Source: an uncultured bacterium
Lineage (GTDB): Bacteria; B130-G9
DNA length: 51,191 nt
Direction: 5' to 3'
NCBI GenBank assembly: GCA_965372715.1
Contig: CBDVDH010000022.1
Location: 1-51,191, forward strand
The first letter of the stretch is position 1; each line of letters opens with the position of its first letter. The notes beneath the pieces were generated by a model. It ran no database searches. It saw nothing but the letters and a program-made list of their open reading frames with translations, and was not told where the DNA came from. The translations under genes were made by a program, and so were the position numbers. Of the stretch, positions 27,280 to 46,395 are shown piece by piece.

Positions 27280-27340
27280 AGGATGAAGGATGAAGCGGGA
27301 TCGCTACAATTGATGATTCAGCCTTCATAATTCATCCTTT
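27271..27340. terminator. Inverted heptamer repeat between convergent genes (possible bidirectional terminator)
   Basis: AAAGGATGAAGGATGAAGGATGAA (27271-27294) versus reverse complement of 27317-27340, 21/24 match. Confidence 0.55.
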
Positions 27341-30300
27341 CGAGTCTGGAGGCCGTCAAAGAATCTCGAGAGGGCTTTGATCTTGCTTTTGGCCCCTTGC
27401 TTCTCGAGAACGTCCACGGTGTGTCGCACAAACCAGGAGATGTCTAGGCCTAGCTGGACACCGCGCCTGATCTCTTCCGACTTTATTCGCCCAAAGATGC
27501 TTTCAAGGCCTTCTAGCACGCGGTCGAGATGTTCGTCAGTGCCCTCGAACATGCCCAGGAGGCACAGTGCCTTGACCAATCGCACAAGCGAGGTTGGCCG
27601 CTGCGCGATGTAGCTCAGCCCCTCCGCGACGTGAGGTGGCAGGGCTTTCTTATGGGCCTCATGGATGCACTGTCCCAGGACGATCAGCAGGTCTTCCTCG
27701 GGCCACGTTCTCCGCGACTTCAGCGACTCGTCGTCCGGCATCTCAAAGGCTCGGCAGACGTCGAGGCCGTCGTTGCAGGCAGCCTCACACAGTTCGTATT
27801 CGGCCCGGTCAAAATGGACTAGCGCCTTCTCCACGAGGGACCGCGCAAGGAGGACTTGCAGGCCCTTTTCTCGACAGAACCGAACCGACTTTTCGGCGGG
27901 GTTGAGGTCTTCCTCCCCCCTGCCTGACAGGCGAGCCGCCCGGGCCAGAAAAAGCAGGTACCGAGGCCTGTGGAGGAGCCAGCCGGACATCTCAATTAAC
28001 GGCTGAACCTTGGACAGCTGCTCGTCCGCGTCGAAGGTCCTGCCGACCGCGAGCGCCCACTCACAGCGGTCAAGAAGGCCGCTTATCTTGAGATGATTGG
28101 GCCCAAACCGCTCGGCCTGCTGGGTGAGTTGATCGGATATCTTGCCCGCCAGCTCGAATCTCCCGCAGTAGAGGAAGACCTTTAGCAGGCTCCCGAGCGC
28201 TTCCAGTTTCTGTTCCTTGTGCGAGGAGCTCGTTGCGCCGCTGAGCGCTGGCCTGAGCATCACCAAGACGTCCTCGGATGGCATGAAGAGGGTCTTTGTG
28301 TCGGCGAGGAACCTATGCGCCGCGCTCTGAAGCTCGGACGCCTCCATCTTCGTGGCCAACTCCAGATACCGCTCGAACATCTTGTGTGCTTCGCCCAGCC
28401 TGCCCTGATAGAAGCTCGTCTCGCCAAGAACACGTAGTGACCACGCTAGGTTGTAGTCATCTTGCTCCGAGACCGCCAGCTGCTGCGCTTTTTCCCCCAA
28501 TTCACGTGCCTGAGCGAGTTCGCATCGGAATAGACTCACAAGCGCGAGGTTGACAAGTGAATCGAACTCGAGGCGTTTCGACTCGGCCGATTCGGCTATC
28601 CGAAGGGCATCATCGAACGACTTCCGAGCGGCCTTCAACGAGCCTACGTGTACGTCCAACGTGCCCAGGTTTATCAGGCACTGGCCAGTTAAGGGCTTAT
28701 CACCGATTCTCCAGGCGATGTCAGCGGCGCGCCTGAAATGGCCCCTGGCTGTATCCCAGTTGCCCTCGTGCTCGTGAAGAAGGCCGATGTTGTTGTGCGT
28801 CCTTGCGACGAAAAGGTCATCCGAGGCGCGGCGCGCCAGCTCTATCTGTTCCTCCAACACATCGATCGAGCGCTTGAGATTACCCGTCAAGTAATGGACC
28901 TGAGCAAGGTTGTTCATCAGGCCCAGGAGCTCCTGAGCGTCGGGTTCGTCCTGCCATTTCTTCAACAGCTCAATACAGCGCTCGAAAAGGTCGATCGCGT
29001 CGCTATTGGCGTAGATCAGAGCTACCTGGCGAGCCGCCTCCCTCGTGTGATAATATGCCTTCTCGAAATGGCCCGCTCGTTCGTGGTGGTACGCAAGGAG
29101 CGCCGAGCGACTCCTGTCTTTGTCACCCAGGAAGCTCTCAAGAAACGCCGCCGCTCTAGAGTGCAGCGCCCGGCGCCTGCTTTTCAGGAGACTGTCGTAG
29201 ATCGCGTCCCTAAAGAACGCCCGACTGAACGAATACGATGCTCGCCCGTTCGAGGATTCCTCCGTCAGGATCTGAAGACCGACCAACTGTGAAGCACACT
29301 TACGGGCGGTATCGCGGTCGAGGCCAGAGGTAAGCTCCGACAAGACCTCGAACGGCGTGTCGGACCCAAGAACGGAGAGCGTCTGCAGGAGCTTTTTTTG
29401 GGCGCCCTGAAGCCGGTCAATTCTCGCCATGACCATCCCCCGAAGGCTATCGGGAAGCTGCGCCTCGTCGGGGTGGCCGGTTATCTTCCAGCGCCACTCC
29501 TCCCGTGCGAGGATTCCTTTATCCATCAAGAGCTTGACCATCTCCTCGACGAACAGCGCGTTGCCTTCACACTTGCCGAGGATTAGTTCCCTGACCTTGG
29601 TGAGCGCCTCGTAGTCATCTGTCTTGTCGAGGATTGAATACACCAATCTCTGCGTATCCCTTTCCGAGAGTCTGCCCAGTTTGATCTTTTGTGCATGGTC
29701 CAGGTCGTCCCATACCGGCGGGGAATATGGGCGATACGACGTGCAGAGAATCAGTCTGGACGAGGAGAAGCGCTTTAGGATATGAGAGAACAGGTCCAGC
29801 GACGCCCGGTCGCACCACTGAAGGTCATCTACTACGATCGCAACCGCGGCCTGCGAAAGCAATCCCCCTACCAGGCTTTCCGCTGCATGGTAGATGCACT
29901 TCTGGATTTCCTCGCCTTGCAGACCTTGAAACTCCGCCTCCTGGGTGCCGCCTCTGACGACAAAAGAGAGCCCCGTCGCGATTGGGCACTGCCCGTGCGA
30001 TGGAGGAACAGCTCCCAAAGCGCCCTCAACGTGCGCCGCAGTGACCATCTTGGCCTCCGGCTCAAGACCCAGTATCTGCCCGAACAATTCCGCGACCGGG
30101 GCGTATGGCACATTGCGTTGATACTCAAGCGATCTTGCCCAGAACCACCTTATGCCGGCAGGCTCCATCTCACGCTGGCACTCCGATAGGAGTCGCGTCT
30201 TGCCAATGCCAGCTGGCCCCTCGATGGCAACCATCGTCGCCCTTCCCTTAAGCGCCTGCTCGACCGTGCGCTTAAGACTCTCAAGCTCCTCCCGCCTGTT

Positions 30301-31134
30301 GACGTAAGTCGTGAAACCGATTTCCTGAAGACCTCTCGTCGTCGCGGCCCTCGGCCTCGCCGAAAGAACCCGATATACGCCGATCTCACGCGCCAAGCCC
30401 TTCACCGAATGTTTCCCCGCGTCCTCAAACTCGAATAGCTGCCGTGTGGCGCTGTAAACTGACTCGGAAACCATCACCGACCCGGGCTCGCAGAGCTTCT
30501 GCATTCGCTCAGCAACGTTCACGACCCTCCCCATCGCCGTGTAATCACGTTTCGCTTGGGACCCCACCTCACCAGTGATGACTAGACCGCAGTTTATTCC
30601 TACCCTCAGGCGGACGGGCTCCGAAATGGGGAGCTCCATCGTCTCAGCAAGCCGATGTGCTGCCTGCTGCATCTCGAGGGCGGCTCGAACCGCTCGCTCA
30701 GCGTCGTTTTCGTGTGCGTGAGGGGCGCCGAAAAGCGCCATTATGCAGTCGCCAATGAACTTATCCACCGTGCCATCATACCTAACGATCGGCTCTGTCA
30801 GGACGTGGAAGCACTGATTCATAACATCTCTGAACTCCTCCGGGTCCAGCGCCTCCGACATCGGGGTCGAACCCACGATGTCGGCAAATATGACCGCGGT
30901 GATTCTCCGCTCGCCCGCGAGTTCAGGGGCCGACGGTGGGGCTGGCGCGGGTTTGGGCGAAGCCTTCGGCGGCGCGACCGCTCCCGTCAGAGATGCCCCA
31001 CAGTGGCGACAAAAGCGGCTGTCGGGAGGGTTTTGCCCTTGACAGGACGGACAGACCGCGATGAGCTTCGCCCCGCATTTGGCGCAGAACTTGCCACCCT
31101 CCTGGACGGCCGCGCCGCATTGGTTGCAGTGCAC
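27325..31134 (-). CDS. Double Zn-ribbon / class III adenylate-guanylate cyclase / AAA_16 (STAND-like) NTPase / TPR protein
   Basis: Four CxxC; FADIVGST, DKFIGD, DYTAMG, VNVAER; Walker A GPAGIGKT; Walker B IVVDDLQW; EGNALF; TPR motifs (HNNIG, LINLG). Confidence 0.92.
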   Translation of the reverse strand: MHCNQCGAAVQEGGKFCAKCGAKLIAVCPSCQGQNPPDSRFCRHCGASLTGAVAPPKASPKPAPAPPSAPELAGERRITAVIFADIVGSTPMSEALDPEEFRDVMNQCFHVLTEPIVRYDGTVDKFIGDCIMALFGAPHAHENDAERAVRAALEMQQAAHRLAETMELPISEPVRLRVGINCGLVITGEVGSQAKRDYTAMGRVVNVAERMQKLCEPGSVMVSESVYSATRQLFEFEDAGKHSVKGLAREIGVYRVLSARPRAATTRGLQEIGFTTYVNRREELESLKRTVEQALKGRATMVAIEGPAGIGKTRLLSECQREMEPAGIRWFWARSLEYQRNVPYAPVAELFGQILGLEPEAKMVTAAHVEGALGAVPPSHGQCPIATGLSFVVRGGTQEAEFQGLQGEEIQKCIYHAAESLVGGLLSQAAVAIVVDDLQWCDRASLDLFSHILKRFSSSRLILCTSYRPYSPPVWDDLDHAQKIKLGRLSERDTQRLVYSILDKTDDYEALTKVRELILGKCEGNALFVEEMVKLLMDKGILAREEWRWKITGHPDEAQLPDSLRGMVMARIDRLQGAQKKLLQTLSVLGSDTPFEVLSELTSGLDRDTARKCASQLVGLQILTEESSNGRASYSFSRAFFRDAIYDSLLKSRRRALHSRAAAFLESFLGDKDRSRSALLAYHHERAGHFEKAYYHTREAARQVALIYANSDAIDLFERCIELLKKWQDEPDAQELLGLMNNLAQVHYLTGNLKRSIDVLEEQIELARRASDDLFVARTHNNIGLLHEHEGNWDTARGHFRRAADIAWRIGDKPLTGQCLINLGTLDVHVGSLKAARKSFDDALRIAESAESKRLEFDSLVNLALVSLFRCELAQARELGEKAQQLAVSEQDDYNLAWSLRVLGETSFYQGRLGEAHKMFERYLELATKMEASELQSAAHRFLADTKTLFMPSEDVLVMLRPALSGATSSSHKEQKLEALGSLLKVFLYCGRFELAGKISDQLTQQAERFGPNHLKISGLLDRCEWALAVGRTFDADEQLSKVQPLIEMSGWLLHRPRYLLFLARAARLSGRGEEDLNPAEKSVRFCREKGLQVLLARSLVEKALVHFDRAEYELCEAACNDGLDVCRAFEMPDDESLKSRRTWPEEDLLIVLGQCIHEAHKKALPPHVAEGLSYIAQRPTSLVRLVKALCLLGMFEGTDEHLDRVLEGLESIFGRIKSEEIRRGVQLGLDISWFVRHTVDVLEKQGAKSKIKALSRFFDGLQTRKDEL

Positions 31135-31156
31135 CTAAACGCCACCTCGAATAAGA

Positions 31157-34100
31157 CTACTCATCTGAAAGCGTGAACCACGCTTCGGCGATTCTGCCCG
31201 AAGGTGATTCGGCGCCCGGCACAAGAAGCGCCGCCTGAATGCAATAGACGCCGCTCGCAAGCCCGGCGGGAAGCGTAGTCTCAAGAATGGGTATCGCGCC
31301 ATACTTGGCTCCCTCAGGCAACGGGCTGAAGCTGTACGCGGGGTTCACGATCATGTCGAGGCCCGGAAGGTAAAAGAACATCCCGTCGGGCGTCACAACC
31401 CAGCTATAAAGCTCCAGGTAGATGTCGGGGCCGAAATTCTCCACGCCCACCGCGGCGATGAATTCGTCGCCCGGCCTGAAATCGGTCTTGTTCACCGACA
31501 TTGTCAACTTGACGTTGAATATCTCGAAATCGGCGGATGTTGTGTTGCTAATTCTCTCCGACAGACCGTGCTCGTTAAGGAACGCCGACCATGTGTAGCG
31601 CCCATCAGGGAGCCCCTCTATCATCGTGATCCTGAACATCTCGTAGTCGGTATATGAGAAGCCTGCTGGGACGCTCAGGGCATAAGGAGTCGGCGCCGTC
31701 GTGAGGCCCGGGAGGTAGAGCGACGCCGCATCCGGCAGAGTCACATACACGTAAAGGTCCGCGTCGATATCATCTCCCGGATTTGACAGAGAAAGGTTGA
31801 CGATCATCTCGTCTCCCGGAATAAACACGGTGTCGTTGAGGGTCAGGTCCAGGTCGAGATCGGGACGTCTTACCGTGAAACTGCTGGTCGCTATCTTGCA
31901 GACCGTGTCCCACGTGCCGGGCTCGGTCAAACCCGCGAACCACACGTAGTCCCCGAGCGCCCAGCCGGCTGGTATCGTGAAGGAGTGAAGCTCGAAGTCC
32001 AAGAACGAGCTGTGGCCCGGAAACGGCGTCAGTGAAAACGGCGCCGCATCCGTACTCATGTCTGGCCAAAAGAGTAGATCGCCTCCGGAGGTCAGGACGC
32101 AAGCATAGAAGTCGACGTCAGCGGACTCTCCTCTGTTCGTCGCATCGACCACTACGGTCTGTACATCCCCCACCTGGTAACTGTCTCTGTCGGTTCTCAC
32201 CTTGATCGAGAAATCTGGAATCGTAGTTACCACAGGCCCTTCGTAGGCGCCGCTTTCAGGACTCATAACCCACTCGGCCGACGAGCTCTGGAACTTGAAA
32301 GCGAAGGTGTGATATCCGGCTGAAAGCCTCGTTGAAAACTCGTACACGCCGTCGTTCGGAGCGCCCTGAATAAGCGACATAACGCGCGCCTGATTTCCGT
32401 CGATCACGACGTTCATTTGCCGAGGCGCAGCGCCCCCTGAGTGGATATAGTTGACACAATAGGTGAAGTCGGTCGCGGGCGAGCCAAACCCGGGCTCGAC
32501 ATACGGATTGGAAAGCCTCGGGGCGTCCGCTGAACCGGAAATCGTGAAAGCGCCGTCGTGCGGCTCGGTCGAATTGCCGGCCGGGTCCCTCGAGGACGCC
32601 TCGAACTCATAGGCGCCCGGCTCGAGGCCGCTGAGTTCGACCCTGTGATCGGTCGAGTGCTCATAGCTCGCCCATGTGAACTTCTCGGTGTCCTCTTCGG
32701 CCCGCCTCCAATAGACCAGATGGGTATCAGCAATCTCGCCGGTTGTCCAGACGATTGCGAGCAGCGCGGGACCCCGCCGCGTCTCCACGTCAGGCCCGGA
32801 CGTGAACGACGGTGAAAGCACGTCGTCTTCCCAACTAGAACTGAACGTAGTTGACGCGGACCACGAGGTATTCCCGCTCGAGTCAGCGGAGCCAACCTTG
32901 CATTCGTATTCAAGACCCGCGTCGAGGTCGCCCAGCCAACCCGAGTGCTCCTGCTTGTTCTCAGACCCGGCCCAGCTGCCCTTGCTCCTTTGCCGAGAGC
33001 CCTTCTTCCAGAACTCGATCCTGCTGTCGCCTGGCTCCGACGTCCGCCAGTCGATGCGTACCTTACCCTCCGCATTATACGAAAGTCCTACGCCGGATAT
33101 CGTGGGCGGCTGGGTGTCCGGGTCCGCAAGCGTCGTGAATGCGCCACTCTCGGGTGAGGCCAGGGAATTGCCCGATGGATCCGTTGACGAGATGATGTAT
33201 CTATACGTTGTGTTCGGCCTGAGATTGCCTAAGAACGCCTCGTGCAGGCGCCTAAATCGACCGTCCCGCCACGCCTGCCCCTCCTCGGGTCCCGACATAG
33301 CCTCCCAAAACACAACCCTCGTGTCGCTCACTCGGTTGGTTACCCACTCGATCTTCGCGAGCTTGTCGGTCAAGTAGGCCACTTCCGGACCCGAAACGCA
33401 GAACAAGCCGGCCCTGTCGGACGTCGCCAACGTCGTGAACGTCAGGTCTGCCGACGAGCTCGGGCCGTTATCCATGAGGTCCATGCAGAACACCTTGTAG
33501 TGATACTCCGTGGCGGGTAGGAGGCCCGCCAAGAAGACGCCGTGAACCAGCGAGGTGCGGCGGTCGCTCGCTGTTTGCCCGTAACTGTCACTCGTCCCGA
33601 ACTGTACCCAAGACAGGGCAAGTTCATCGACTGTCCAGCCGATGACAGCTATCGAATCGCTAACATAGATGGCGCGTGGTCCCTCGAGAATTTCCGGAGG
33701 TAGCGTGTCGGGCATCTCCAGAGTGGCGAATTCAAAGGTGCTCGATCGGACAGTATTGCCGGACATATCGGAGCTGATGACCCGCGCGTGATACGTCATG
33801 TTCGGCGCCAGGCCGCTCATGAACATCGCGTGTCTGCGACGATACTCATCGTCGGTCTGGACGACCCTCGTCGTTCGACCCCGGGCGCCATCTCCTGGAG
33901 AAGCCGAGAGCTCTGCCGAACTCGTCGCGGGTTCATCCGTGGCCCATACGATCGTTATGCTTGTCTCAAACACCGTAACCGCCGGCCCCGCGACGATTAT
34001 CGGCGGCGAGCTGTCAGGCTCTAGCAACGTAACAAAGACCCGCCAGCTGCTATATGTTGGACCGTTGCCGGCCTCGTCCTTTGACCCGACGCGGTAGTGA

Positions 34101-37100: not shown

Positions 37101-40100
37101 TCCAGAAACCCGGATGTTCCGTGATCCTCAGGGATGAAGTCGAATGTGCCGACGGTGCACTCGGTCGAGACGTGGCCGCTAAAGGTCCACGTGCCATCGT
37201 TGAGGCGGTACCACAGCTCGACGTTCTTGACGCCGCACTCCGCGTCCTCTGCGGAATAGGAGATGGCTATCGTAGCGCCAGACACGTATTGGGGGGAATC
37301 GCAGTCGGACGCTGGGCGCTGCGTGTCATAGACCGTCTGGCTGTCGGGCGTTCCATCGAAATCCTCGTCATTCCCCGCGCGGTCCCTCGCCTTTGTTGCG
37401 AAGGAATACTTGTCGTCCCCGGGTGGGTTGAAGCCGACGGTTCCGCTTTCCTGATCGTTCACGCTGTCGAACACAGCCCACGCCGTGCCCTCTGTCTTCC
37501 ACAGAAGATCGAGCTGAGCGATGCCTGAATGGGCATCTGCGGCAACAAACGTAACCGCAATCGTCCCACCAGTTACAAACTCAGGCGAAGTGCAGGCCGA
37601 CGTGGGGGCCACGTTGTCGAACAACGTCTCCGAGTCGGGTTCGCCGGGCGGGTCCTCCACATTCCCGGCATCGTCATAAGCGATGGTGTAGAAGCCATAA
37701 GTGCCAGGCGCTGCGATTGCGTCGAAATCGAAGCAGCCCGTCTCGTCAGGCACGTCTCCGAATAGATGATACTCGTCTCCCTCAAACCGGTAGTAAAGCT
37801 CAACCTTTTGAATACCCGCGCCCCCATCACCATCAGCCTGATAGTTAACCTGGATGGGCACATCCTTATCGTACTGAGGCGAGTCGCAGGATGATGTTGG
37901 CTTTGTGCTGTCGTAAACCGTCGTGCTGTCCGGCGCCCCCGGTGGGTCCTCCACGTTACCCGCTCGGTCCGTGGCGCGGGTGTAGAACTCATATTCGCTC
38001 TCGCCGGGCGGCGTGAAAGCAAAGGTTCCTTCAGTCTCATTCGATATCGAGTCGTAGTAGGTCCAGCCGCCGCCATCCTTGTTGAACCAAAGTGCAACCT
38101 CAGCCACGCCGCTGCCGCCGCCATCGGCCACAAAATCCACGTCAAACGGGGAAGTCGACACGAAGGGGGCAGATGAGCACTCGGAAGTAGGCTTCGTCGT
38201 ATCGTAAATCGTGTTGCTGTCCGGGGATGCCGGTGGGTCCTCTACGTTGGCGGCTCGGTCCTCAGCACGGGTATAGAACTCGTATTCACCTTCGCCTGAA
38301 GGCGTGAAAGCAAAGGTTCCTTCAGTCTCATTCGGTGTCGAGTCGTAGTAGGTCCAGCCGCCGCCATCCTTGTTGAACCAAAGTGCAACCTCAGCCACGC
38401 CGCTGCCGCCGCCATCGGCCACAAAATCCACGTCAAACGGGGAAGTCGACACGAAGGGGGCAGATGAGCACTCGGAAGTAGGCTTCGTCGTATCGTAAAT
38501 CGTGTTGCTGTCCGGGGATGCCGGTGGGTCCTCTACGTTGGCGGCTCGGTCCTCAGCATGGGTGTAGAACTCGTATTCACCTTCGCCTGAAGGCGTGAAA
38601 TCGAACGTGCCCTGGGTTGCGTCCGATATCGTTTCGTAGTAGGTCCAGCCGCCCCCGTCCTTGTTGAACCAGAGCACGACCTCGGCCACGCCGCTGCCGC
38701 CGTCATCGGCGTCAAAATCAACACCGAAGGGCGAGGCGTTTGTGAACTGGGGCGATGTGCAGCTCGAGGTCGGCTTCGTGGAGTCGTAGATCGTCGTGCT
38801 ATCCGGGTCGGGCGGGTAGTTCTCCTGGTTGCCCACGCCGTCAGTCGCACGTGAGCAGAAGTGATACTCGCCGTCCCCGTGAATCGGATCGCACCGGGCA
38901 GCGCCGGTCGTGGCCGTTGTGGAGTAGAACTCCGTCCACCCGCCGTCCTGGAACGCGTAATAGAGAAACACAGTATCTATTCCCGCCCCGTGGTCCGAGG
39001 CCTCGAAGTCTACCGGAATATCTCCAGATGAGAAGTACGCCGGCGAGTCTGTTTCTGATTCGGGAGCTGTATCGTCAACGACTGGCCCGTCATAGACGCC
39101 GCTGTCTGGGTCGCGGTCCCATCTGCCCGTCGGGCTTTCCGCATAGAAATAGAACTCGTGGGCGCCTTCATCGAGGCCGCTGGCCTGATATCGATAGAGT
39201 CCGTCGTTCGCATCGCCATCCTTGAGCGACATGCGGAACGGGGAGCCGTCGATGTACACCTGTATCACGTCCGGAGCGACGGTTGACTGGTAGTTCACGT
39301 CAAAAAGGTAGTTGGAGTAGCCACGTCCCTGGTCAGGATCAACGTTGCCGCCACTGAGCTCCAAGTCCGCCTCGCTGAACTTGTAGAGCCTCGTGCCCAC
39401 TTCGAGATAGACCGAGCCATCAGGGCCGATTGCCGGGGATGAATCGGCATTCAGGCTGGCTACATTGTGCGTCCACCGGAGCGTCCCGTCCGGGTTCAGG
39501 GATTTCATACCGTCATAACCGATGTAGATATAGCCGTCTCGGTCAACCGCCGGGGTGCTGTGCAAGTCCATCCCGCCGGTGTAGGACCAGAGGAAGGAAC
39601 CGTTCGAAGCGAGACAGAACAGCTTGTCAGTCCCCTTAGGTATGAGGATTCTGTCGCTGAGGCCGAGGGCTGGGGACGCTGTAACGTCGCCGCCATCGCA
39701 CTCGTAGGTCCAGTTCAGCGTTCCGTCAGGCTCAAAGCAGAACACGACGCCGTCGTCGGTCAAGGTTAGGATGTCACCTGTCGAGTTCACGAGAGGCGTA
39801 GTTGAAATGCCCTGCTCAAGGTCCTTATACCACACGAATGAACCATCGCTTTGGAGGCTGAAGAGGAAGCCGAACGTGTTGCCGAAATAGAGCCGTCCTC
39901 CAATGCCAATGGCCGGCGGCGCGACTATCTCGTGCCTGGAATTGAAGGTCCAGTCGAGGGAGCCATCGCTCTCAAGCGCAATGAGCCAGTCACCTCTCCC
40001 GAAGTAGACTTGCTCATCGGCACTGAGCGCAACCAGCCCCCCGGAATCGTCATCCACGCCGTAGGACCAGCGGAAGCCGCCGTCCGACGCAAGCGCGTAA

Positions 40101-42343
40101 ATACAACAATATTGCGACTTCAAATAGACATTGCCGCTTCGCGCGATCGACACATTGGTGTAGTCGGCCAGATTGGCGTCATAGCTCCATTGAGTTGCGC
40201 CAGCCGAGTTGAGGCAATACAGCCAGCCCGTTGAGTTCTCGCAATAGAGATTCCCGCCCATATCGACGACCGGCATGCGGTCATCCGCAAAGCCGTTCTT
40301 CGACCAATCGACGTTGTCGCCGGGGCAGCCCAGCGCGGGGGACCGCGATCGCCGGGTGGCTCCGCATTTGAAGACCGGCCAGTGCGCCACCTCAACGCTC
40401 AGATAGTATTCACCCGTGGCATTTGCGCCGTCGCTGTGTTCCACCGCCAGGAAATAGGTTCCGTCGGACTGACAGGTCCATCCTATTACAGAGCCACCGG
40501 CAAGGCCCGAGCCGCCGTCGAAAGCGAGCTCCTCTGCGCAGCTAGGATCGTAGATGTAGAGGTCTGTATCGCAATCTGAGGAGGCCAGGGCCGTGCGTGC
40601 GAAGTATGATATGTATTTCTGCGCCTCGAACTGGACCCAATCCACGTCGCCAGGGAGGAGCGTCCTTTGCTGCGGCGTGCCGTCCGTCTGAATAGTGCGC
40701 CCGTTGCCTTGGGCCTCAGCACAGCTATCGTCCGGCTCGTAGTCGTCGCCGTCGTTGTCAACAATTGGCCCGGAGAAACGGCCTGAAGAAGGAAGATAGA
40801 CGAGAGGAGCGCTGCTCTTGTCGCGCGCCCTGAAATTGAACGCCCCGACACGCTCCGGACCCATGATTCCATCGGCGTAGTATAACCCGTCGTGGGCGGC
40901 GCCCGTATGAAGCGTCATGTCGTAATCAGTGCCGTCGCCGAGAACGATGTTGACCCGTATCAGATTTGGCGTCCTTCCCGCCGGACTGTGGTAATAGACC
41001 CAATATGTGTAGGAGTCCGAATCGGCGCCAGCACTCGGCGTTACTCGGCCATTAGATAATCGTGGCAGAGACTCGACGCAATAGACCTTGTTGTCGCTGG
41101 AGCCAAAGAGCACCGTCTCATACGGGCCGATTGCGGGGCAAGCGCAGATGTTGTCACCCGTTTGGTATGACCATTTTGTGAGGCCGAAGGAGTTGACAGC
41201 GTAAAGCCATTCGTAGTTGTAGTCGAAGTAGATCGAGCCATCACCATCAATCGCTGGGGACGTATCTACGGGGTCGGCAAGAGCAAGCGACCACCTCAGC
41301 GTTCCGTCTGACCGCAGGACGCAGAGGTCCGTTACAGTGTTACCATCAGTTGCCCCCAAGACGATGGCGCCGTCGGAGTCAACGGCCACGGAGCCGACAA
41401 CATTGCTGGTGGACCTGGTGTCGAAGCTCCAGTCCAAGGAGCCCCCGGAGTTCAGGGCTATAAGTTTATTGTCAGCTGAGCCGAAGTATAGGCATCCGCC
41501 ATCCTCGCTCAGTGTTAAGACGCCATCCACCTCGCCTCCGGTGTTATATGACCAGCGATAGCCGCTGGACGAGTTGAGCGCATATATCTTGTCCTCGTTG
41601 GTTGCGAAATAGACGAAGCCGTCGGATGTTACGGCTGGCGTCTGGGTGAGCCACGTCCGATATGAGAGCGCGTAGGACCAGTCGAAGTCCCCCGACGAAT
41701 CGATTGCGAAGAGATTTTCCTCGAAGCTCGCATAGACCGTCCCGTCATCGCCGACCGTCGGGCCCGTGAAGTTGCCGCCGCTGCCCATGTAATAGAACCA
41801 ATCGCGGGATCCGCCTGAATCGATGGCGTAAAGGTAACCTTCCGCCACTGTGTGGGCTGCTTCGCTGTCGTCGGAGAGTGCCGGGAATGTCGCTGCATCG
41901 TTGAACGTATAGCTCCAGGCCTTGGTCCCGTCGTCGATATCTAGCCAATAGAGATAGCCTGGGTAAGAGCTTGGGGCGGTGCAGAACGCGACCTTGTCGT
42001 CGCCAGAAATGGCGATACTGTCCACCGGGTCATCCCCCGCGTCGTAGGTCCAGCGCAGCCTCGCGCTCTGTGAGCCGCGCAGGCCCGAGCGCGCGCTGTG
42101 CGCTCCATCGTATCCGAATTGCTGCCAATACGGCGATGCAGTCAAGGGCTCAAAGGCGACTGATACATCTGAGCATTGGTGAAGTTCGGAGGCAGAGAGT
42201 GGCTCAGTTTCGGGCGGCGAGTATCCGGGAAACAACAGTCCAGTGAGCGCAGCGCCAATGATGATTATCAGAATTGGAATAGACAGCCTTCGCCATCTTT
42301 TCTCGAAGAGTATCGACATCGGTGTAACCCTCCCAGGCTTCAT
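31157..42343 (-). CDS. Giant (3728 aa) exported multidomain surface protein: 2 PQQ-like beta-propellers, PPC-like domain, 13 ~97-aa Ig-like repeats, 6 FN3-like repeats, 3 C-terminal lineage-type domains
   Basis: N-terminal basic+hydrophobic segment; repeated SPAI..DG.IY.G...LYA....G...WSY; DxxxPxSxC...ATDxAGNxE repeats; WxTxE.. FN3 repeats; 11-kb uninterrupted ORF. Confidence 0.9.
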   Translation of the reverse strand: MKPGRVTPMSILFEKRWRRLSIPILIIIIGAALTGLLFPGYSPPETEPLSASELHQCSDVSVAFEPLTASPYWQQFGYDGAHSARSGLRGSQSARLRWTYDAGDDPVDSIAISGDDKVAFCTAPSSYPGYLYWLDIDDGTKAWSYTFNDAATFPALSDDSEAAHTVAEGYLYAIDSGGSRDWFYYMGSGGNFTGPTVGDDGTVYASFEENLFAIDSSGDFDWSYALSYRTWLTQTPAVTSDGFVYFATNEDKIYALNSSSGYRWSYNTGGEVDGVLTLSEDGGCLYFGSADNKLIALNSGGSLDWSFDTRSTSNVVGSVAVDSDGAIVLGATDGNTVTDLCVLRSDGTLRWSLALADPVDTSPAIDGDGSIYFDYNYEWLYAVNSFGLTKWSYQTGDNICACPAIGPYETVLFGSSDNKVYCVESLPRLSNGRVTPSAGADSDSYTYWVYYHSPAGRTPNLIRVNIVLGDGTDYDMTLHTGAAHDGLYYADGIMGPERVGAFNFRARDKSSAPLVYLPSSGRFSGPIVDNDGDDYEPDDSCAEAQGNGRTIQTDGTPQQRTLLPGDVDWVQFEAQKYISYFARTALASSDCDTDLYIYDPSCAEELAFDGGSGLAGGSVIGWTCQSDGTYFLAVEHSDGANATGEYYLSVEVAHWPVFKCGATRRSRSPALGCPGDNVDWSKNGFADDRMPVVDMGGNLYCENSTGWLYCLNSAGATQWSYDANLADYTNVSIARSGNVYLKSQYCCIYALASDGGFRWSYGVDDDSGGLVALSADEQVYFGRGDWLIALESDGSLDWTFNSRHEIVAPPAIGIGGRLYFGNTFGFLFSLQSDGSFVWYKDLEQGISTTPLVNSTGDILTLTDDGVVFCFEPDGTLNWTYECDGGDVTASPALGLSDRILIPKGTDKLFCLASNGSFLWSYTGGMDLHSTPAVDRDGYIYIGYDGMKSLNPDGTLRWTHNVASLNADSSPAIGPDGSVYLEVGTRLYKFSEADLELSGGNVDPDQGRGYSNYLFDVNYQSTVAPDVIQVYIDGSPFRMSLKDGDANDGLYRYQASGLDEGAHEFYFYAESPTGRWDRDPDSGVYDGPVVDDTAPESETDSPAYFSSGDIPVDFEASDHGAGIDTVFLYYAFQDGGWTEFYSTTATTGAARCDPIHGDGEYHFCSRATDGVGNQENYPPDPDSTTIYDSTKPTSSCTSPQFTNASPFGVDFDADDGGSGVAEVVLWFNKDGGGWTYYETISDATQGTFDFTPSGEGEYEFYTHAEDRAANVEDPPASPDSNTIYDTTKPTSECSSAPFVSTSPFDVDFVADGGGSGVAEVALWFNKDGGGWTYYDSTPNETEGTFAFTPSGEGEYEFYTRAEDRAANVEDPPASPDSNTIYDTTKPTSECSSAPFVSTSPFDVDFVADGGGSGVAEVALWFNKDGGGWTYYDSISNETEGTFAFTPPGESEYEFYTRATDRAGNVEDPPGAPDSTTVYDSTKPTSSCDSPQYDKDVPIQVNYQADGDGGAGIQKVELYYRFEGDEYHLFGDVPDETGCFDFDAIAAPGTYGFYTIAYDDAGNVEDPPGEPDSETLFDNVAPTSACTSPEFVTGGTIAVTFVAADAHSGIAQLDLLWKTEGTAWAVFDSVNDQESGTVGFNPPGDDKYSFATKARDRAGNDEDFDGTPDSQTVYDTQRPASDCDSPQYVSGATIAISYSAEDAECGVKNVELWYRLNDGTWTFSGHVSTECTVGTFDFIPEDHGTSGFLDADADGQYDFYTLAFDRAGWEEEPPATPDASTMYDTMEPESTCSSPGFSTSASIIVRFVATDTTAGIASVELYYTHSGADSGPILWGTSTAGTVGVFDFVATDAGYYELFTIGHDHAGNVEGAPGAPDSQTLYDDSGPTSEASCDAFASTSPISVSFEAQDDSSGIDRVELYLRDGSGWVLSDEAQGAASGTFEVAVAGEGVYEFATMAYDLAGNDESLPGQPDCSCLLDATEPASVCYAPQYSKSSAFDVDYEAQDALSGIDKVELYLKDGDGWVFSDSKPDVSVGTFGVTFATEGVYGFATIAHDFAGNIEDFPADADCSCLLDMSSPSSICYAPEFASTATFEVRFEASDGGSGVAAVGLFHSSDLDGAWRPYGESTAGTVASFAYNVPFPAERHVRYSFFARATDNAGNNELPPATPDAETIYDAAAPTTSCTVPAYASLSTIEVDFAVDERLAGLDWAKLYYRYASDGWRDGSQATTATIGVFAFVPPDGDGRYEFCVGAGDRCGNVTVPPDPCCWATYDTVKPVSSCSSRSFVTGSSIDLSFTASDELSGLDSVRFWCKYADGAWRETGLGSRDPSGVVSFIPADGDGIYSFYSRATDNAGNEEDAPGDADCVVAVDRSQPVLSIGRVNPQTGTPDLDYTFSVVYRDADGAPPSESTVVLDGVAWPMTLASGDPADGTYSHTTRLAGGIHTFFFYFVDAYGLDVRLPTAGAFSGPAVNSVPALDDGKVAPTVGDTETVFEFSVDYHDDDGDEPLGVQVVIDGAALDMVPATPATCDPYDMRYLYTRKLAEGAHDFFFRCQDLNGASDRLPDAGQYAGPNVSSFDGAPPYCRDMAPAPGETDVPSDTTISLRIVDDMSGVDPSSIEMTVGGVVATPSVMATPGGYHVSVTPMRPFPERMVVQVTVSVCDTSVRRNCLDRFEYSFTVEDTTAPMIIPGSISCAAGDNVAVVEWLTNEPSDSLVEYSPEGGLPSATESTVMRCFHTVCVRGLAPATTYHYRVGSKDEAGNGPTYSSWRVFVTLLEPDSSPPIIVAGPAVTVFETSITIVWATDEPATSSAELSASPGDGARGRTTRVVQTDDEYRRRHAMFMSGLAPNMTYHARVISSDMSGNTVRSSTFEFATLEMPDTLPPEILEGPRAIYVSDSIAVIGWTVDELALSWVQFGTSDSYGQTASDRRTSLVHGVFLAGLLPATEYHYKVFCMDLMDNGPSSSADLTFTTLATSDRAGLFCVSGPEVAYLTDKLAKIEWVTNRVSDTRVVFWEAMSGPEEGQAWRDGRFRRLHEAFLGNLRPNTTYRYIISSTDPSGNSLASPESGAFTTLADPDTQPPTISGVGLSYNAEGKVRIDWRTSEPGDSRIEFWKKGSRQRSKGSWAGSENKQEHSGWLGDLDAGLEYECKVGSADSSGNTSWSASTTFSSSWEDDVLSPSFTSGPDVETRRGPALLAIVWTTGEIADTHLVYWRRAEEDTEKFTWASYEHSTDHRVELSGLEPGAYEFEASSRDPAGNSTEPHDGAFTISGSADAPRLSNPYVEPGFGSPATDFTYCVNYIHSGGAAPRQMNVVIDGNQARVMSLIQGAPNDGVYEFSTRLSAGYHTFAFKFQSSSAEWVMSPESGAYEGPVVTTIPDFSIKVRTDRDSYQVGDVQTVVVDATNRGESADVDFYACVLTSGGDLLFWPDMSTDAAPFSLTPFPGHSSFLDFELHSFTIPAGWALGDYVWFAGLTEPGTWDTVCKIATSSFTVRRPDLDLDLTLNDTVFIPGDEMIVNLSLSNPGDDIDADLYVYVTLPDAASLYLPGLTTAPTPYALSVPAGFSYTDYEMFRITMIEGLPDGRYTWSAFLNEHGLSERISNTTSADFEIFNVKLTMSVNKTDFRPGDEFIAAVGVENFGPDIYLELYSWVVTPDGMFFYLPGLDMIVNPAYSFSPLPEGAKYGAIPILETTLPAGLASGVYCIQAALLVPGAESPSGRIAEAWFTLSDE
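38010..38600. repeat. Recent 291-bp (97-codon) tandem duplication inside the giant gene
   Basis: 38010-38309 versus 38301-38600 differ at about 4 positions by eye. Confidence 0.9.
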
Positions 42344-42656
42344 AGATTCTCCACAATGTTAATCATTATGGTAAGTGGGGACTGACACTGAGTCAAACCC
42401 GCAAAGGGCAGGGGTTATATCTGAATCGCAGGTGATTTCTCTTCTGCCGCTGGTTCCCTCAAGAGGAATACGATGGACAACGTGCGTCCGACGCAACGGA
42501 TTCCGTTCTGAAAGCGACAACACGGCCCTGAAAGCGCCAAACAGGTACTTGCGTGTAACGTGCTATCCCTTCATGGCCACCGGGTGCTTTTGGACGCTCC
42601 CTGGAGGCTGGGACATAAGTCGATTGGCGAGGATTTCGTTGTCCATTCACAGACTA

Positions 42657-42685
42657 ACGATACAGGAAACACGGCCGATTGTCAA
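42657..42685 (-). promoter_or_regulatory. Sigma70-like promoter for the giant gene
   Basis: Minus strand TTGACA(42685-42680)-N17-TATCGT. Confidence 0.55.
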
Positions 42686-42733
42686 GATCAACGCGGCGGT
42701 TTTCATTTGCGACGCGATTGTCGGAATCGGCCT

Positions 42734-42839
42734 GTAGGGGCGGTGTCTCAGACCCGCCCGCCTACATGAATCCCTGCGGATACGAGGCATCTCATGCGAC
42801 CATCAATTCGAAAGGGCTGGTCTGAGACCACGCCCCTAC
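42734..42839. repeat. Inverted GTAG-REP doublet (REPIN-like)
   Basis: GTAGGGGCGGTGTCTCAGACCCGCCC ... GGGCTGGTCTGAGACCACGCCCCTAC. Confidence 0.85.
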
Positions 42840-42990
42840 ACAACCGCAACGACTTATGTCCCGGCCTCCCTGGTCCGTGGGTTGACACCTTGCGCTTCGT
42901 TCTTGGGCGCGAGGGGTTGACCCGGATGACAGAGCGTGGCTAATCTTTCTATGAAGAAAGACTGTCGGCTTCAGGTCTGGAGGGAGTTAA

Positions 42991-45900
42991 ATGAGATGCG
43001 TTCGCTGCGGGACCGAACTGTCCGGAGGCGCCAAGTTCTGCCCGGAATGCGGTGAGAAGCAAGGACCCTCGAGGCGGGCCATCTTTAGCGAGCGGGAGAT
43101 AGCCGATATCCGAGCTCACTTTGAGACGGACGAGTATCTTTCCAGGCTTCGGGACATGGCTCGGGACGGGCTCTCGATTGAACGAAGAGACATCGCGGTA
43201 ATGTTTGTCGATGTGTCGGGCTTCACTCGCATGTCTTCGGTGATTTCGCGGGAGCAGCTCAGGCTGGTGATGCACGATGTCTATTCGGTCATGACCGAAG
43301 GGATCACCAAATTCGGGGGCTACATTGACAAGTTCTTTGGAGACGAGGCGATGGCCCTCTTTGGTGCGCCGATCGCGCTCGAACACCCTTGTGACAGGGC
43401 CATAACGGTTGCCAGCGAGATAGCGATTGGACTAGGGGGCGTGAACTACCGTTTCAGGGACATACTGCCTGCGCCTCTCTCGATACACGCTGGCATTGCC
43501 TTCGGCGAGGTGGAGGCGGGTCGATTCGGCGATTCGAGGGAGCTTCAATACACGGTCTTGGGCGAGGCCGTCAACCTCGCCAAGCGACTGACTGATGCGG
43601 CGCCCGCGGGTGCAGTCTTTGTCTGTGAGCAGACCCGAGAGCGGGCTTGCGAGCGTTTCGAGTTTGAGGGCCTCGGAGAGCTCCAGCTTGAGGGGATCGA
43701 TAGACCAACCCGCGTCTTTCGGGCGCGGGGTCCTAAGACTGCGAGGACGGAGCACCCGAGATTCGGACGCCTGGACGCTCCCATGATCGGCCGTAATGCC
43801 GAGCTGGGCAAATTGAAATCAGCGTTTGAGAGCCTCTTACGTTGCTATCCGGACCCCAAGCCTTGTGAGCCCGGGGAGCGCGCCTATCGTCATGTTTCGC
43901 GCATCTTCGGAGTTGCAGGCGAGGCTGGCGTCGGCAAATCGCGTCTGAAGCGTGAGTTCAAGCATCACTTACGTGCTCTTCTGGGAGAGGACGGCTTCAC
44001 CTGGCTTGCTGGAAGCGCCTGGACCATTGGCCAGACGCCTCTTTACTGGTCGTTAAAGGCGACTATCTCGTCCGGCGCAGGCTTTGACATGACTGGCTCT
44101 CAGCAAGCGATCCGTGACCGCCTTCTGAAGCTTCCGGTTCTTGAGAGCGACAAAGAGGAGGTGCTTCCCTATCTGTTTCACCTCTTTGGTCTTGAGGATG
44201 AGAAGGGCCGTCTCGCCCAGCTGGATGCGAAGACGATCAAGGAGAATCTATGGTTGGCGGTCAGGCGTCTTTACGGCCGATGGACTGAGATCAAGCCTAC
44301 TGTTCTTGTTTTTGAGGATATGCAGTGGGCAGACGACGGAAGCGCGGACTTTGTTGACTATTTGTCAGATTTCGTCAGTGATTTCCCGATGCTCGTCATC
44401 CTTCTTTATCGCCCGGAGTTTACGCCAAGTTTTGCGAGGGCCAAGAGGGTTCTGTTTACCCAGGTCCGGCTGTCGCCGCTTTCCTCCTCAGCGGAGAGAG
44501 AGCTCTTGGACTCGTATATCCATCCCGGGGCAAGAGAGCAGGTTTTCGTACGAAAGCTGCTGGAGTACTCAGAAGGCAATCCTCTTTTTCTGGAAGAGTT
44601 GCTTCACCTGATGTACGAGCAAGGCAAGCTAGAGCAGCACGATGGCATGCTGCGCCTCACGCAGGATGTGGAGAAGATGCCTCTGCCGACAAGGCTCTCA
44701 GAGGTGCTGTCCGACCGCATCGACACGTTGTCTAAGCGCGATAAGAGGGTTGCGTATTGTGCGGCAGTTATCGGTCGTGCGTTCCCTTATAGCCTTTTGG
44801 CTGACGTTTACGACTCACTCGGCGGCCTGGAGGACGTTTCGGATTCCCTGGATGCGCTCGTCAAGCGAGACATCATCTTCAAAAAGCCCGGCAGTTCAGA
44901 GCCGGAATATGTCTTTAGGCACGCTCTGATACGGAAGATACTCAACCGTCGTCTCATGGAGAGTCTCCGTCGAGAGCTCTGTAGGCTTATCGCGGTCCGG
45001 GTGGAGGAGCTCTACTGTGACCGGATCGAGGAGTTTTATGAGATGCTTTCCGGCCACTGGGAGCTGGCAGGCGATGCGAGTCGGGCAACGCGCTATTCCG
45101 CCCTATGGGGAATCTACAATCTAAAACGGCAGAGACATCTCTCGGCGCAGGAGGCGTTTGAGAGGTACGGGCGTCTGTCAAAGGACTTGACTGAGAAACC
45201 ACTTTCGCCAGAGGAGCAGGAGGAGGTTCTAGTCAGTCGAATAGAAGTTCTTCAATTTCTGGGGCGCTACGAGGAGTCTTTTGAGCTGTGCCACGCCCTC
45301 CTTTCAAGCGCGGGCGAGGACCCAGCGCGAATGGCTCTCGCGCTCTCGAAGGAGGCCAAATCGAGGCTCTTCATGGGCGACTACGACCGCTCGTTGGCCC
45401 TTGCTCAAGAGGCGCTCAAGAACGCTAGGGCAGGCGGCGCCGCCAAGACCGAGGGAGACGCCTTGAACATAATGGGCAACGTCTTCTCCTGCCGCGGCAA
45501 CGTTGACGAGGCGCTTAAGAGCTATGACGAGTCGGTCGCCATAGCCCGTCGTCTGAACGACCGTTGGCTGACCGCCGGGCTGCTCAATAATATCGGCCTC
45601 GTTTACAGGCGTCGAGGAGAATATGACGAGGCGCTTCGCCACTTCGAGGAATCACTTCACATAGGCCGTGAGATATCGGACCGCTCCCGCATGGGCCACT
45701 GCCTCAACAATATCGGGGTCGTTTACTTTGCCCAGGGCAATTTCGATTCTGCTCTTCGATACTACCTGCCGTCGCTTTCGATAAAACGAGAATTGGGTGA
45801 CCGGCGGGGTGTTGCGACGACGCTGCACAACATCGGCGAGATATACAGTATTCGCGGAAAGCACGACGAGGCCCTCAAGTCCTTAAGCGAGGCACTGTCT

Positions 45901-46395
45901 ATATCTCGCCAGTTAGGTGATCGGGCGGGTATCTCGTTCACACTCTCCGGCATAGGAAACGTCTTTGCTGAGACAAACAGATGGGATGAGGCGCAAAAGC
46001 ATGCTTCAGAGGCCGAACGTATATCCAGGGAGATCGGGGAACTGCGCGCGCTTGTCGAATCACTCATTGTGTTGTCGAACGTGAGCATTAGCGCCGGCGA
46101 TTGGGATGCAGGCCTCAAGCAGGCGCAAGAGGCCCTGCGAATATCCGAGCAGAATGAGCCCGAGGCGGCCATCAACTGTCACCTCGCCTTGGCTAAGGCT
46201 TATCTTGGTATGGTGAGGTGGTTTGATCAGAGAAGAAGCGGTCAGGAGCCTCCCCTTTCACGCGACGAGGCCCTCACCAACGCTAAGGCTCACGCGAAGC
46301 AGGCTGGGGAACTCGCCAACAGCAAGGGGATGAGGGGTTATTCAGACAAGGCCGACGGGCTATTGGCACAGCTCGGCAAGATGCGCGGCTCGTAA
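42991..46395 (+). CDS. Zn-ribbon / class III adenylate-guanylate cyclase / AAA_16 (STAND-like) NTPase / TPR protein
   Basis: CVRC..CPEC; MFVDVSGFT, DKFFGD, YTVLG, VNLAKR; Walker A GEAGVGKS; Walker B FEDMQW; EGNPLF; TPRs LNNIG; GGAGG RBS. Confidence 0.92.
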   Translation: MRCVRCGTELSGGAKFCPECGEKQGPSRRAIFSEREIADIRAHFETDEYLSRLRDMARDGLSIERRDIAVMFVDVSGFTRMSSVISREQLRLVMHDVYSVMTEGITKFGGYIDKFFGDEAMALFGAPIALEHPCDRAITVASEIAIGLGGVNYRFRDILPAPLSIHAGIAFGEVEAGRFGDSRELQYTVLGEAVNLAKRLTDAAPAGAVFVCEQTRERACERFEFEGLGELQLEGIDRPTRVFRARGPKTARTEHPRFGRLDAPMIGRNAELGKLKSAFESLLRCYPDPKPCEPGERAYRHVSRIFGVAGEAGVGKSRLKREFKHHLRALLGEDGFTWLAGSAWTIGQTPLYWSLKATISSGAGFDMTGSQQAIRDRLLKLPVLESDKEEVLPYLFHLFGLEDEKGRLAQLDAKTIKENLWLAVRRLYGRWTEIKPTVLVFEDMQWADDGSADFVDYLSDFVSDFPMLVILLYRPEFTPSFARAKRVLFTQVRLSPLSSSAERELLDSYIHPGAREQVFVRKLLEYSEGNPLFLEELLHLMYEQGKLEQHDGMLRLTQDVEKMPLPTRLSEVLSDRIDTLSKRDKRVAYCAAVIGRAFPYSLLADVYDSLGGLEDVSDSLDALVKRDIIFKKPGSSEPEYVFRHALIRKILNRRLMESLRRELCRLIAVRVEELYCDRIEEFYEMLSGHWELAGDASRATRYSALWGIYNLKRQRHLSAQEAFERYGRLSKDLTEKPLSPEEQEEVLVSRIEVLQFLGRYEESFELCHALLSSAGEDPARMALALSKEAKSRLFMGDYDRSLALAQEALKNARAGGAAKTEGDALNIMGNVFSCRGNVDEALKSYDESVAIARRLNDRWLTAGLLNNIGLVYRRRGEYDEALRHFEESLHIGREISDRSRMGHCLNNIGVVYFAQGNFDSALRYYLPSLSIKRELGDRRGVATTLHNIGEIYSIRGKHDEALKSLSEALSISRQLGDRAGISFTLSGIGNVFAETNRWDEAQKHASEAERISREIGELRALVESLIVLSNVSISAGDWDAGLKQAQEALRISEQNEPEAAINCHLALAKAYLGMVRWFDQRRSGQEPPLSRDEALTNAKAHAKQAGELANSKGMRGYSDKADGLLAQLGKMRGS

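Follow-up and report, generated by a model that had tools for sequence, protein, structure and literature searches.

Known cyclase-STAND proteins and the giant-cycA locus

Class III nucleotide cyclases joined to a STAND NTPase and TPR-type repeats are already known from the Rv0386-type proteins of Mycobacterium tuberculosis, from full-length soluble adenylyl cyclase (ADCY10, sACfl) and from proteins resembling the NCBIfam model TIGR03903. Two genes of this architecture, here named cycA and cycB, were analyzed in the genome of an uncultured bacterium of the lineage B130-G9 (designated G000; 3.56 Mb in 112 contigs, 95.9% complete), where they flank a gene encoding a giant protein. The contig that carries them, 51,191 nucleotides in length (CBDVDH010000022.1 of assembly GCA_965372715.1; contig C22 of G000), was analyzed in its entirety and is termed the window. 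The giant gene and cycA form a conserved, closely spaced pair. We hold with about even confidence that the pair is a two-gene operon-like unit, in which the gene of a giant anchored surface protein is followed by that of an adenylate cyclase controlled by its STAND and TPR regions.

In M. tuberculosis, the proteins Rv0386, Rv1358 and Rv2488c are likewise single cytoplasmic polypeptides of ~1100 residues in which a cyclase, an AAA_16/MalT-type STAND NTPase and TPR-like repeats follow each other in the same order as here (10.1101/2024.03.06.583649; see also PMC2447327), and the available portions of these two sources report no giant-gene partner for the mycobacterial cyclases. The Rv0386-type proteins end in a LuxR helix-turn-helix (HTH) domain, which is missing from cycA and cycB; these two carry zinc ribbons at the N-terminus. 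Moreover, Rv0386 is described in the available text as a class IIIc enzyme (10.1101/2024.03.06.583649), in contrast to the Lys/Thr specificity pair carried by cycA and cycB. Membership in the Rv0386 type was rejected, since no HTH family occurred among the Pfam matches and the C-terminus of cycA was modelled as a helical solenoid.

In full-length soluble adenylyl cyclase, as in sAC-like cyclases of bacteria, a class III cyclase is likewise followed by a predicted STAND P-loop module. According to the available part of one account, its authors found no sACfl-specific regulator, and the role of the STAND module is obscure even in mammals (PMC12802110). For the STAND-TPR half of such proteins, genomic leads to input or purpose are few, and a conserved partner gene at close spacing is one of them. 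The catalytic domains of ADCY10 match cycA (E = 4.5e-12); they are present as a tandem pair in sAC, whereas cycA and cycB each have one, and only the G000 paralog on contig C5 shows two cyclase-like stretches. In this 1107-residue protein (C5:38059-41382, minus strand, locus L005) the two stretches are followed by AAA_16, and its gene adjoins that of LptE.

The best NCBIfam model for the two proteins was TIGR03903, the TOMM kinase/cyclase fusion (E = 4.6e-88), which covers the cyclase, NTPase and TPR regions. The scores of 296.4 bits (cycA) and 205.9 bits (cycB) are far below the cut-off of 705.75, the match begins no earlier than model position 249, and a kinase domain is missing from the Pfam results; membership in this family was therefore rejected. 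No genes for thiazole/oxazole-peptide synthesis were found near the pair among the window open reading frames (ORFs) that were scanned.

A giant gene followed directly by a component of nucleotide second-messenger signalling is likewise known from the Omnitrophota, in which, according to the available part of the report, most giant genes are followed by pilZ genes whose products bind cyclic di-GMP (c-di-GMP) (West-Roberts et al., 10.1101/2023.11.21.568195). That arrangement differs from the present one in its phylum, in its messenger, in that the partner is a receiver and not a cyclase, and in the lack of a STAND switch. A literature search, with subscription journals outside its coverage, returned no paper describing a conserved pairing of cyclase-STAND-TPR and giant surface-protein genes. 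The pairing would add cyclic AMP (cAMP) to the few second messengers with a genomic link to giant surface proteins, whose biology in uncultured bacteria is poorly understood.

The three genes and the parts of the pair are located in the window as follows.

27325..31134, minus strand: cycA, 1269 aa (ORF list)
27328..29187, minus strand: all-helical TPR-like sensor solenoid of cycA, ~residues 650-1269 (TPR_12 and TPR_MalT matches, structural model, LGN/Pins TPR matches)
29749..30303, minus strand: STAND NTPase core of cycA, AAA_16, residues 278-462 (Pfam; Walker A GPAGIGKT, Walker B VVDD)
30385..30897, minus strand: cyclase catalytic domain of cycA, residues 80-250 (PF00211, 105 bits in Pfam and 110 bits in the genome search)
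31135..31156, minus strand: 22-bp spacer from the stop codon of the giant gene to the GTG start of cycA
31157..42343, minus strand: giant gene, 3728 aa (ORF list)
31163..38584, minus strand: C-terminal part of the giant, two thirds of its length (residues 1254-3727), common within G000 only to the giant on contig C8
42230..42286, minus strand: the sole hydrophobic segment of the giant, residues 20-38, following KRWRR (Kyte-Doolittle scan, alignment of N-termini)
42991..46395, plus strand: cycB, 1134 aa; zinc ribbon, class III cyclase, STAND, TPR (ORF list)

This layout, including the 22-bp gap, the divergent cycB and a protease gene converging on it (see below), is that of the initial annotation. 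Within the 22-bp spacer between the giant gene and cycA, a ribosome-binding-like GAGGTGG precedes the GTG start by 9 nt, and no site resembling a terminator was found. The spacer looks like an operon junction, across which the two genes may be co-transcribed.

The cyclase and STAND modules of both proteins score above the curated Pfam cut-offs (21.9 bits for PF00211, 32.6 bits for AAA_16). CycA comprises a double zinc ribbon (DZR), Guanylate_cyc (105.2 bits), AAA_16 (73.4 bits) and TPR_12/TPR_MalT, and cycB a zinc ribbon, Guanylate_cyc (58.6 bits), AAA_16 (45.3 bits) and TPR_12 (201 bits); the motifs GxxGxGK[TS] and hhhh[DE]D are present in both. The two are distant paralogs, only 23% identical over ~1000 residues (E = 2e-57), and their repeat regions differ, as had been claimed. 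A Kyte-Doolittle scan showed no hydrophobic membrane segment in either protein, and both are therefore predicted to be cytoplasmic.

Catalytic residues were read from an alignment to CyaB (3r5g) and CyaC and from an alignment of 19 family cyclases. The class III set and the Walker motifs noted in the initial annotation were present in both proteins. CycA has the metal-binding Asp pair (D85, D129), the substrate-specifying Lys/Thr pair (K125, T199), the transition-state Asn and Arg of the NxxxR motif (N206, R210) and K245, together with Walker A GPAGIGKT and Walker B DD; all seven residues, Walker A GK[TS] and Walker B DD are retained in 5/5 cycA orthologs. CycB keeps equivalents of the first six residues, with Glu at the K245 position, Walker A GEAGVGKS and Walker B ED, and the six residues, the Glu and the ED are found in all three cycB orthologs. 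The Lys/Thr pair is thus common to all orthologs of both proteins. Lys plus Thr at the base-specifying positions is the signature of class IIIb adenylate cyclases, and the pair points to ATP, rather than pyrimidines, as the substrate, which would make cAMP the product.

The closest solved relatives of the cycA cyclase domain are Pseudomonas aeruginosa CyaB (3r5g, E = 2.2e-34) and Spirulina CyaC (1wc0, E = 3.4e-27), both of them class IIIb enzymes. All of the catalytic residues align with theirs, including the Thr at the second specificity position. CyaB, which serves surface sensing, and CyaC are regulated by membrane/MASE or other sensor domains, in contrast to the STAND-TPR switch predicted in cycA and cycB.

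Residues 265-1269 of cycA were modelled with AlphaFold from a 37-row alignment (mean pLDDT 83.1, pTM 0.70). The model has the order expected of a STAND protein, i.e., a P-loop nucleotide-binding core and a helical/winged-helix part followed by a repeat sensor, with helix-pair repeats extending to ~residue 1125; the last ~125 residues were modelled as helical with low confidence. Foldseek ranked the STAND-TPR protein PH0952 of the MalT/AfsR clade first (6mfv, E = 1.8e-13), followed by Avs3 (8dgc) and Apaf-1 (1z6t). The TM-scores against 6mfv reach only 0.29/0.41, owing to differences in the repeat arms. The effector of PH0952 is a DNA-binding domain, whereas that of cycA is an enzyme. The profile matches and the predicted model together confirm the cyclase-STAND-TPR architecture.

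In the giant protein, a short cytoplasmic tail and a single membrane segment are joined to a body of two PQQ-like beta-propellers, ~13 OmpL47/Big-type repeats, fn3 and purple-acid-phosphatase-N-like repeats, and a C-terminal repeat module that was not assigned to a family. The hydrophobic segment at residues 20-38 has the features of a signal anchor and, since nothing similar occurs later in the sequence, the protein is predicted to be anchored in the envelope by its N-terminus. An RTX/LapA-type giant adhesin was considered and rejected: the giant has no RTX/HemolysinCabind match, no ABC, MFP or TolC genes of a type I secretion system were found among the window ORFs scanned, and the N-terminal signal anchor stands in their place. 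In total, G000 carries 17 ORFs of at least 2000 residues, several of them in tandem arrays. Four giants occur in a row on C18 and two pairs on C8, with further giants on C9, C12, C1, C17 and other contigs, and most of the G000 giants share OmpL47/Big-type repeats.

Conservation of the giant-cycA pair and its relation to other paralogs

The family sample comprised seven genomes from four genera, beyond which the nearest relatives belong only to the same domain. Among all five carriers of either gene, which represent three genera and a metagenome contig, the giant gene is followed by cycA on the same strand. The lengths of the gap are as follows.

G000 (the genome of the window): 22 bp
G001 (same genus): 22 bp
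G003 (genus g3): 17 bp
G004 (genus g4): 23 bp; the contig of the giant breaks off within the zinc-ribbon region at the beginning of cycA
L033 (metagenome contig): 22 bp; cycA 84% identical

The orthologs of the giant in the last four are 48-95% identical to it, and the lowest identity among carriers is 48% for the giant and 58% for cycA. The 5' flank of the giant gene varies among G000, G001 and G003, and the pair itself stays intact. The remaining genus, g2, has neither gene: cycA was absent at E≤1e-40 from all three of its genomes (95, 83 and 87% complete), as was a window-type giant, the best match to the N-terminal 1250 residues being a 33% identical paralog. At the syntenic site of g2 the TldD-PmbA-GT4-GT4 block is kept and is followed by orthologs of G000 C87:547-2194. 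Since both genes are missing at the corresponding place, the giant gene and cycA were gained or lost as a unit.

The initial annotation had linked the giant functionally to both cyclases, and had named abundant and randomly placed paralogs, with an unconserved linkage, as what would count against this. Its suggested genome-wide count was carried out, and PF00211 was found in eight ORFs of the 3.56-Mb genome. Seven of these are cyclase-STAND genes, namely cycA, cycB and those on C8, C39, C60, C75/C26 and C5; the eighth, on C40, encodes an FHA-GAF-cyclase protein. Five paralogs with 42-51% full-length identity to one another, cycB among them, make up one clade, while cycA represents a separate lineage with 22-25% identity to that clade. 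The gene designated C75/C26 is probably a single one split by the assembly, since its halves (C75:11819-13237, plus strand, the N-terminal 473 residues; C26:45634-47742, minus strand, the C-terminal 702 residues of a cycB-clade cyclase) lie at two contig ends and cover overlapping query ranges (1-473 and 471-1130). Thus paralogs are indeed numerous, and four of the seven STAND-type genes lie elsewhere, yet the linkage of cycA to the giant gene is conserved; so far as conservation goes, the link of the giant to cycA stood and that to cycB did not.

A second cyclase-giant module was observed on C8. The giant encoded there (C8:18812-31342) is the closest paralog of the window giant, with 40% identity over 2560 residues up to the C-terminus (1614 bits, versus 788 for the next paralog), and a family-wide search with residues 2400-3728 of the window giant gave full-length matches only in window-type and C8-type giants. 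On the same strand, 318 bp upstream of the C8 giant, is a cyclase gene (C8:31661-35113), whose product is the closest paralog of cycB (50.7% identity over the full length). The same order, a C8-type cyclase followed by a giant, recurs in G001 (contig C18) and G006 (contig C128), with gaps of 288-424 bp across the three genomes. A quick IQ-TREE search with 21 rows, from which the incomplete cycB-like partial sequence on C113 of G004 was left out, placed the cycB and C8 cyclases in sister clades (SH-aLRT support 98). No C8-type giant was matched in G003 or G004 in the family-wide search with the C-terminal residues, and none of the G004 cyclases placed in the tree fell into the C8 clade. Because the sister giant carries a cyclase of the sister clade, these data point to an ancient duplication of a cyclase-plus-giant unit. 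The lineage thus offers two paralogous examples of the pairing, together with a natural control genus in which both genes of the window pair are absent.

The frequency of such adjacencies exceeds chance. When ORFs of 150 residues or more are considered, three of the seven cyclase-STAND genes adjoin an ORF of at least 2000 residues, as do 23 of 2164 non-giant ORFs overall, and random placement by permutation gave P = 3e-5 for three or more adjacencies and P = 0.0023 for two or more. A conservative count recognizes two adjacency events, one of the cycA type and one of the cycB/C8 type, both of which involve the same two of the 17 giants. The link between giants and cyclase-STAND genes is therefore not random.

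It could still be an inherited neighbourhood without shared function, resulting from slow rearrangement and one old segmental duplication involving C8 in a genome rich in both kinds of gene, an explanation that we regard as rather unlikely. Several observations agree with it, or otherwise weigh against a functional unit. Synteny between G000 and G003 spans ~17 genes on the cycA side, housekeeping genes included, so that conserved adjacency alone is weak evidence of function, and the seven genomes in four genera are not independent of one another. The genome has 17 giants and eight cyclase-domain ORFs in 3.56 Mb, and the permutation statistic ignores paralogy. Four of the seven cyclase-STAND genes sit among unrelated genes. 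Moreover, some members of the cycB clade show signs of partial degeneration: D85C on C60, K125N on C39, T199A with a Walker B of EN on C8 (the Ala at the second specificity position is shared by the C8 paralogs of G000 and G001), and T199A with R210K on C75. In the C8-type giant the signal peptide looks cleavable and a cytoplasmic tail is lacking, from which it follows that direct contact between a giant's tail and the TPR region cannot be general. Finally, no ORF of more than 1400 residues was found in the sampled flanks of any of 44 distant relatives of cycA (27-32% identity).

On the other side of the balance, simple inheritance does not readily account for the same-strand arrangement with a 17-23 bp gap in all five carriers, for the presence or absence of the pair as a unit at a synteny breakpoint, for the occurrence beside one giant subfamily (two of 17 giants) of two cyclase lineages, the cycA and the C8/cycB type, that share only 23% identity, or for the low probabilities under random placement, even when only two adjacencies are counted. 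For these reasons we prefer the operon-like unit, in which the giant and cycA would be functionally tied.

The distant relatives were obtained from a metagenome scan with the cycA alignment, which yielded 80 loci; 45 long matches were analyzed, and 35 loci with a cyclase domain only or with short pieces were left out. The cycA ortholog L033 was the only one of the 45 with a giant neighbour and, given its absence in the other 44, the tie between giant and cyclase is lineage-specific. Pfam was run on 57 immediate neighbours of at least 150 residues from 40 of these loci, excluding L033 and the near-duplicates L051, L059, L071 and L075, and most proved to be housekeeping genes. A GDSL-lipase-like neighbour was present in 10 of the 40 (L058, L062, L064, L066, L067, L069, L072, L076, L078 and L080), which form one clade with 29-32% identity to cycA. 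A general neighbourhood rule based on this gene was dropped, as the 10 loci are probably close kin of one another.

cycB and the giant-cycB junction

Two further features are located on the cycB side of the giant gene.

42604..42868, no strand assigned: dispersed repeat of ~265 bp with terminal inverted repeats, resembling a miniature inverted-repeat transposable element (blastn, inverted arms)
46414..47280, minus strand: gene P0004 for a CPBP (Rce1-like) intramembrane protease, 288 aa (PF02517, E = 1.3e-13)

The initial annotation had viewed the giant as bracketed by two cyclases that possibly act as a pair. In its strongest form, this reading takes the giant and both NLR-like cyclases as one sensing system, with the cyclases paired on the adhesin; we consider it very unlikely. 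The arrangement does exist on contig C22, and the occurrence of a cyclase of the cycB sister clade beside the sister paralog of the giant is hard to obtain by a random join. Also compatible with a pair is the presence of the Lys245 equivalent in cycA and not in cycB, since this residue is missing from one partner in some asymmetric cyclase pairs. The comparison among genomes, however, speaks against it. In G001, which is 85-95% identical to G000 at the nucleotide level, the giant and cycB are on different contigs: collinearity with the window halts at 42612 and resumes at 42902, i.e., at the edges of the repeat, and extends from there to 47182, so that the CPBP gene, which converges on cycB with a gap of 18 bp, accompanies cycB in both genomes. 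The upstream neighbour of the giant in G001 is a gene for a 728-residue protein without a Pfam family, and cycB is divergent there from orthologs of G000 C40:51-2550 (the FHA-GAF-cyclase gene and a BFN-domain gene); the repeat is missing at these junctions. The G004 ortholog of cycB (70% identical) has a radical-SAM paralog upstream. This gene was considered as an ortholog of the C40 gene (42% identity) and rejected, the true ortholog being located elsewhere at 85%. G003 keeps the giant-cycA pair and has no cycB-type cyclase.

The three genomes that carry cycB thus show three different contexts upstream of it, and a giant neighbour occurs only in the G000 assembly. The three-gene bracket is consequently not conserved, and the comparison lends no support to the proposal that the two cyclases act as a pair.

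The multi-copy repeat lies in the 647 bp that separate the giant gene from cycB, and its inverted arms of 29 nt are at 42594-42622 and 42850-42878. It gave 103 blastn high-scoring segment pairs in G000, and among the best 70 of these at least 14 other copies of at least 250 bp were observed at 85-95% identity, several of them at contig ends; Rfam gave no match for the repeat. Over positions 41000-44000, the contigs of four metagenome runs reached a summed depth of ~950 on the repeat, versus 5-8 in its flanks. The flanks were covered by contigs of related strains (pieces ~90-96% identical), all of which ended at 42603/42604 and at 42868/42869/42902, and no contig from the four runs bridged the junction.

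The position of cycB beside the window giant would therefore be either a relic of an ancestral unit of a cycB-type cyclase and a giant, which G000 may have preserved, or a rearrangement or assembly join mediated by the repeat. A purely random join is unlikely, because the sister clade of cycB adjoins the sister paralog of the giant. In either case the adjacency of cycB is dispensable for the giant-cycA system, and the unit of study is the two-gene pair and not the more eye-catching three-gene bracket.

Radical-SAM genes recur near cycB-clade cyclases: one is found two genes downstream of cycB (47310-48014, minus strand), and others lie upstream of the C39 paralog (L003:10788-11849) and upstream of the G004 cycB (L014:287-1702). 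As the genome holds many radical-SAM paralogs, this recurrence may be due to chance.

Possible signalling role and candidate receivers

A defence function was also weighed, phage sensing having been among the roles suggested for the cyclases. In such a scheme an Avs/NLR-like STAND protein would sense a phage or prey protein and fire a cyclase effector in the manner of Pycsar. The STAND-TPR architecture is indeed Avs-like, Avs3 being the second Foldseek match; the cyclase domain matches the PycC models of PADLOC (E = 3.2e-21), and a neighbouring GT4 gene weakly matches the GT4-conflict family (E = 1.2e-7). We nevertheless give this scheme hardly any credence. In PADLOC the matches were confined to PycC and TPR models and to the corresponding regions of the protein, with no hit to a defence NTPase model. 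The genes around the pair, among the window ORFs that were scanned, are housekeeping ones and encode TldD, PmbA, two GT4 glycosyltransferases, a release factor, SurA-like proteins and phospholipid enzymes. The location is stable and syntenic in three genera, and the tree agrees with vertical descent. The Lys/Thr pair indicates, by the general rule for such residues, ATP and not pyrimidines. Membership among the Avs or defence-type NLR-like proteins was rejected on the NTPase, neighbourhood and synteny data, and membership in Pycsar because, despite the PycC-like domain, the window contains no gene with a cyclic nucleotide (cNMP)-binding domain that could serve as an adjacent effector.

Under the preferred reading of giant and cycA as an operon-like unit, the TPR solenoid would keep the NTPase closed until a cytoplasmic ligand or protein opened it. 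ATP-dependent oligomerisation could then juxtapose the cyclase domains, as class III cyclases are active only as dimers, and cAMP would be produced. For STAND proteins, inducer-driven opening, multimerisation and autoinhibition by the TPR sensor are described in the available part of PMC6468293. Co-transcription would tie the cAMP input to production of the giant surface structure, and the role of the pair could be regulation of, or feedback from, an envelope or attachment apparatus.

G000 encodes only two cNMP-binding proteins, on contigs C80 and C21, which are the likely receivers of the proposed cAMP signal. The first is a 552-residue ORF (C80:7281-8921, minus strand), the G001 ortholog of which (L009:8012-9649, minus strand; 546 residues, 96% identical) is an MscS-type mechanosensitive channel with a cNMP-binding domain. 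In G001 this channel gene lies ~6 kb from the FHA-GAF-cyclase gene and cycB. The second (C21:80-547, minus strand) is a stand-alone cNMP-binding protein of 156 residues.

A more far-reaching proposal would make the NLR-like cyclases dedicated monitors or controllers of individual giants. Each giant of the subfamily would have its own STAND-gated cAMP generator, which would sense a cytoplasmic cue of the giant's production, export or mechanical load and signal through the MscS channel and the small cNMP-binding protein. It would exemplify a broader, as yet undescribed rule, in which giant surface proteins of uncultured bacteria are equipped with private second-messenger enzymes (cAMP here, and possibly c-di-GMP in the Omnitrophota). 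The proposal is speculative, and we judge it improbable as it stands.

The gene of the 156-residue receiver overlaps by 20 nt the end of a gene for a secreted M4/M36-like metalloprotease of 1344 residues (C21:528-4562, minus strand; locus L117). This protease-then-receiver pair was present in six of the seven family genomes (G000, G001, G002, G003, G005 and G006) and was not found in G004, which is 86% complete; it is another conserved association of cyclic-nucleotide signalling with a large exported protein. Among the immediate neighbours of the other giants, three of 19 were signalling genes: a REC-GAF-GGDEF gene adjoins the C12 giant, and kinase-like genes (HATPase_c; STAS-HisKA) adjoin the C17 and C9 giants.

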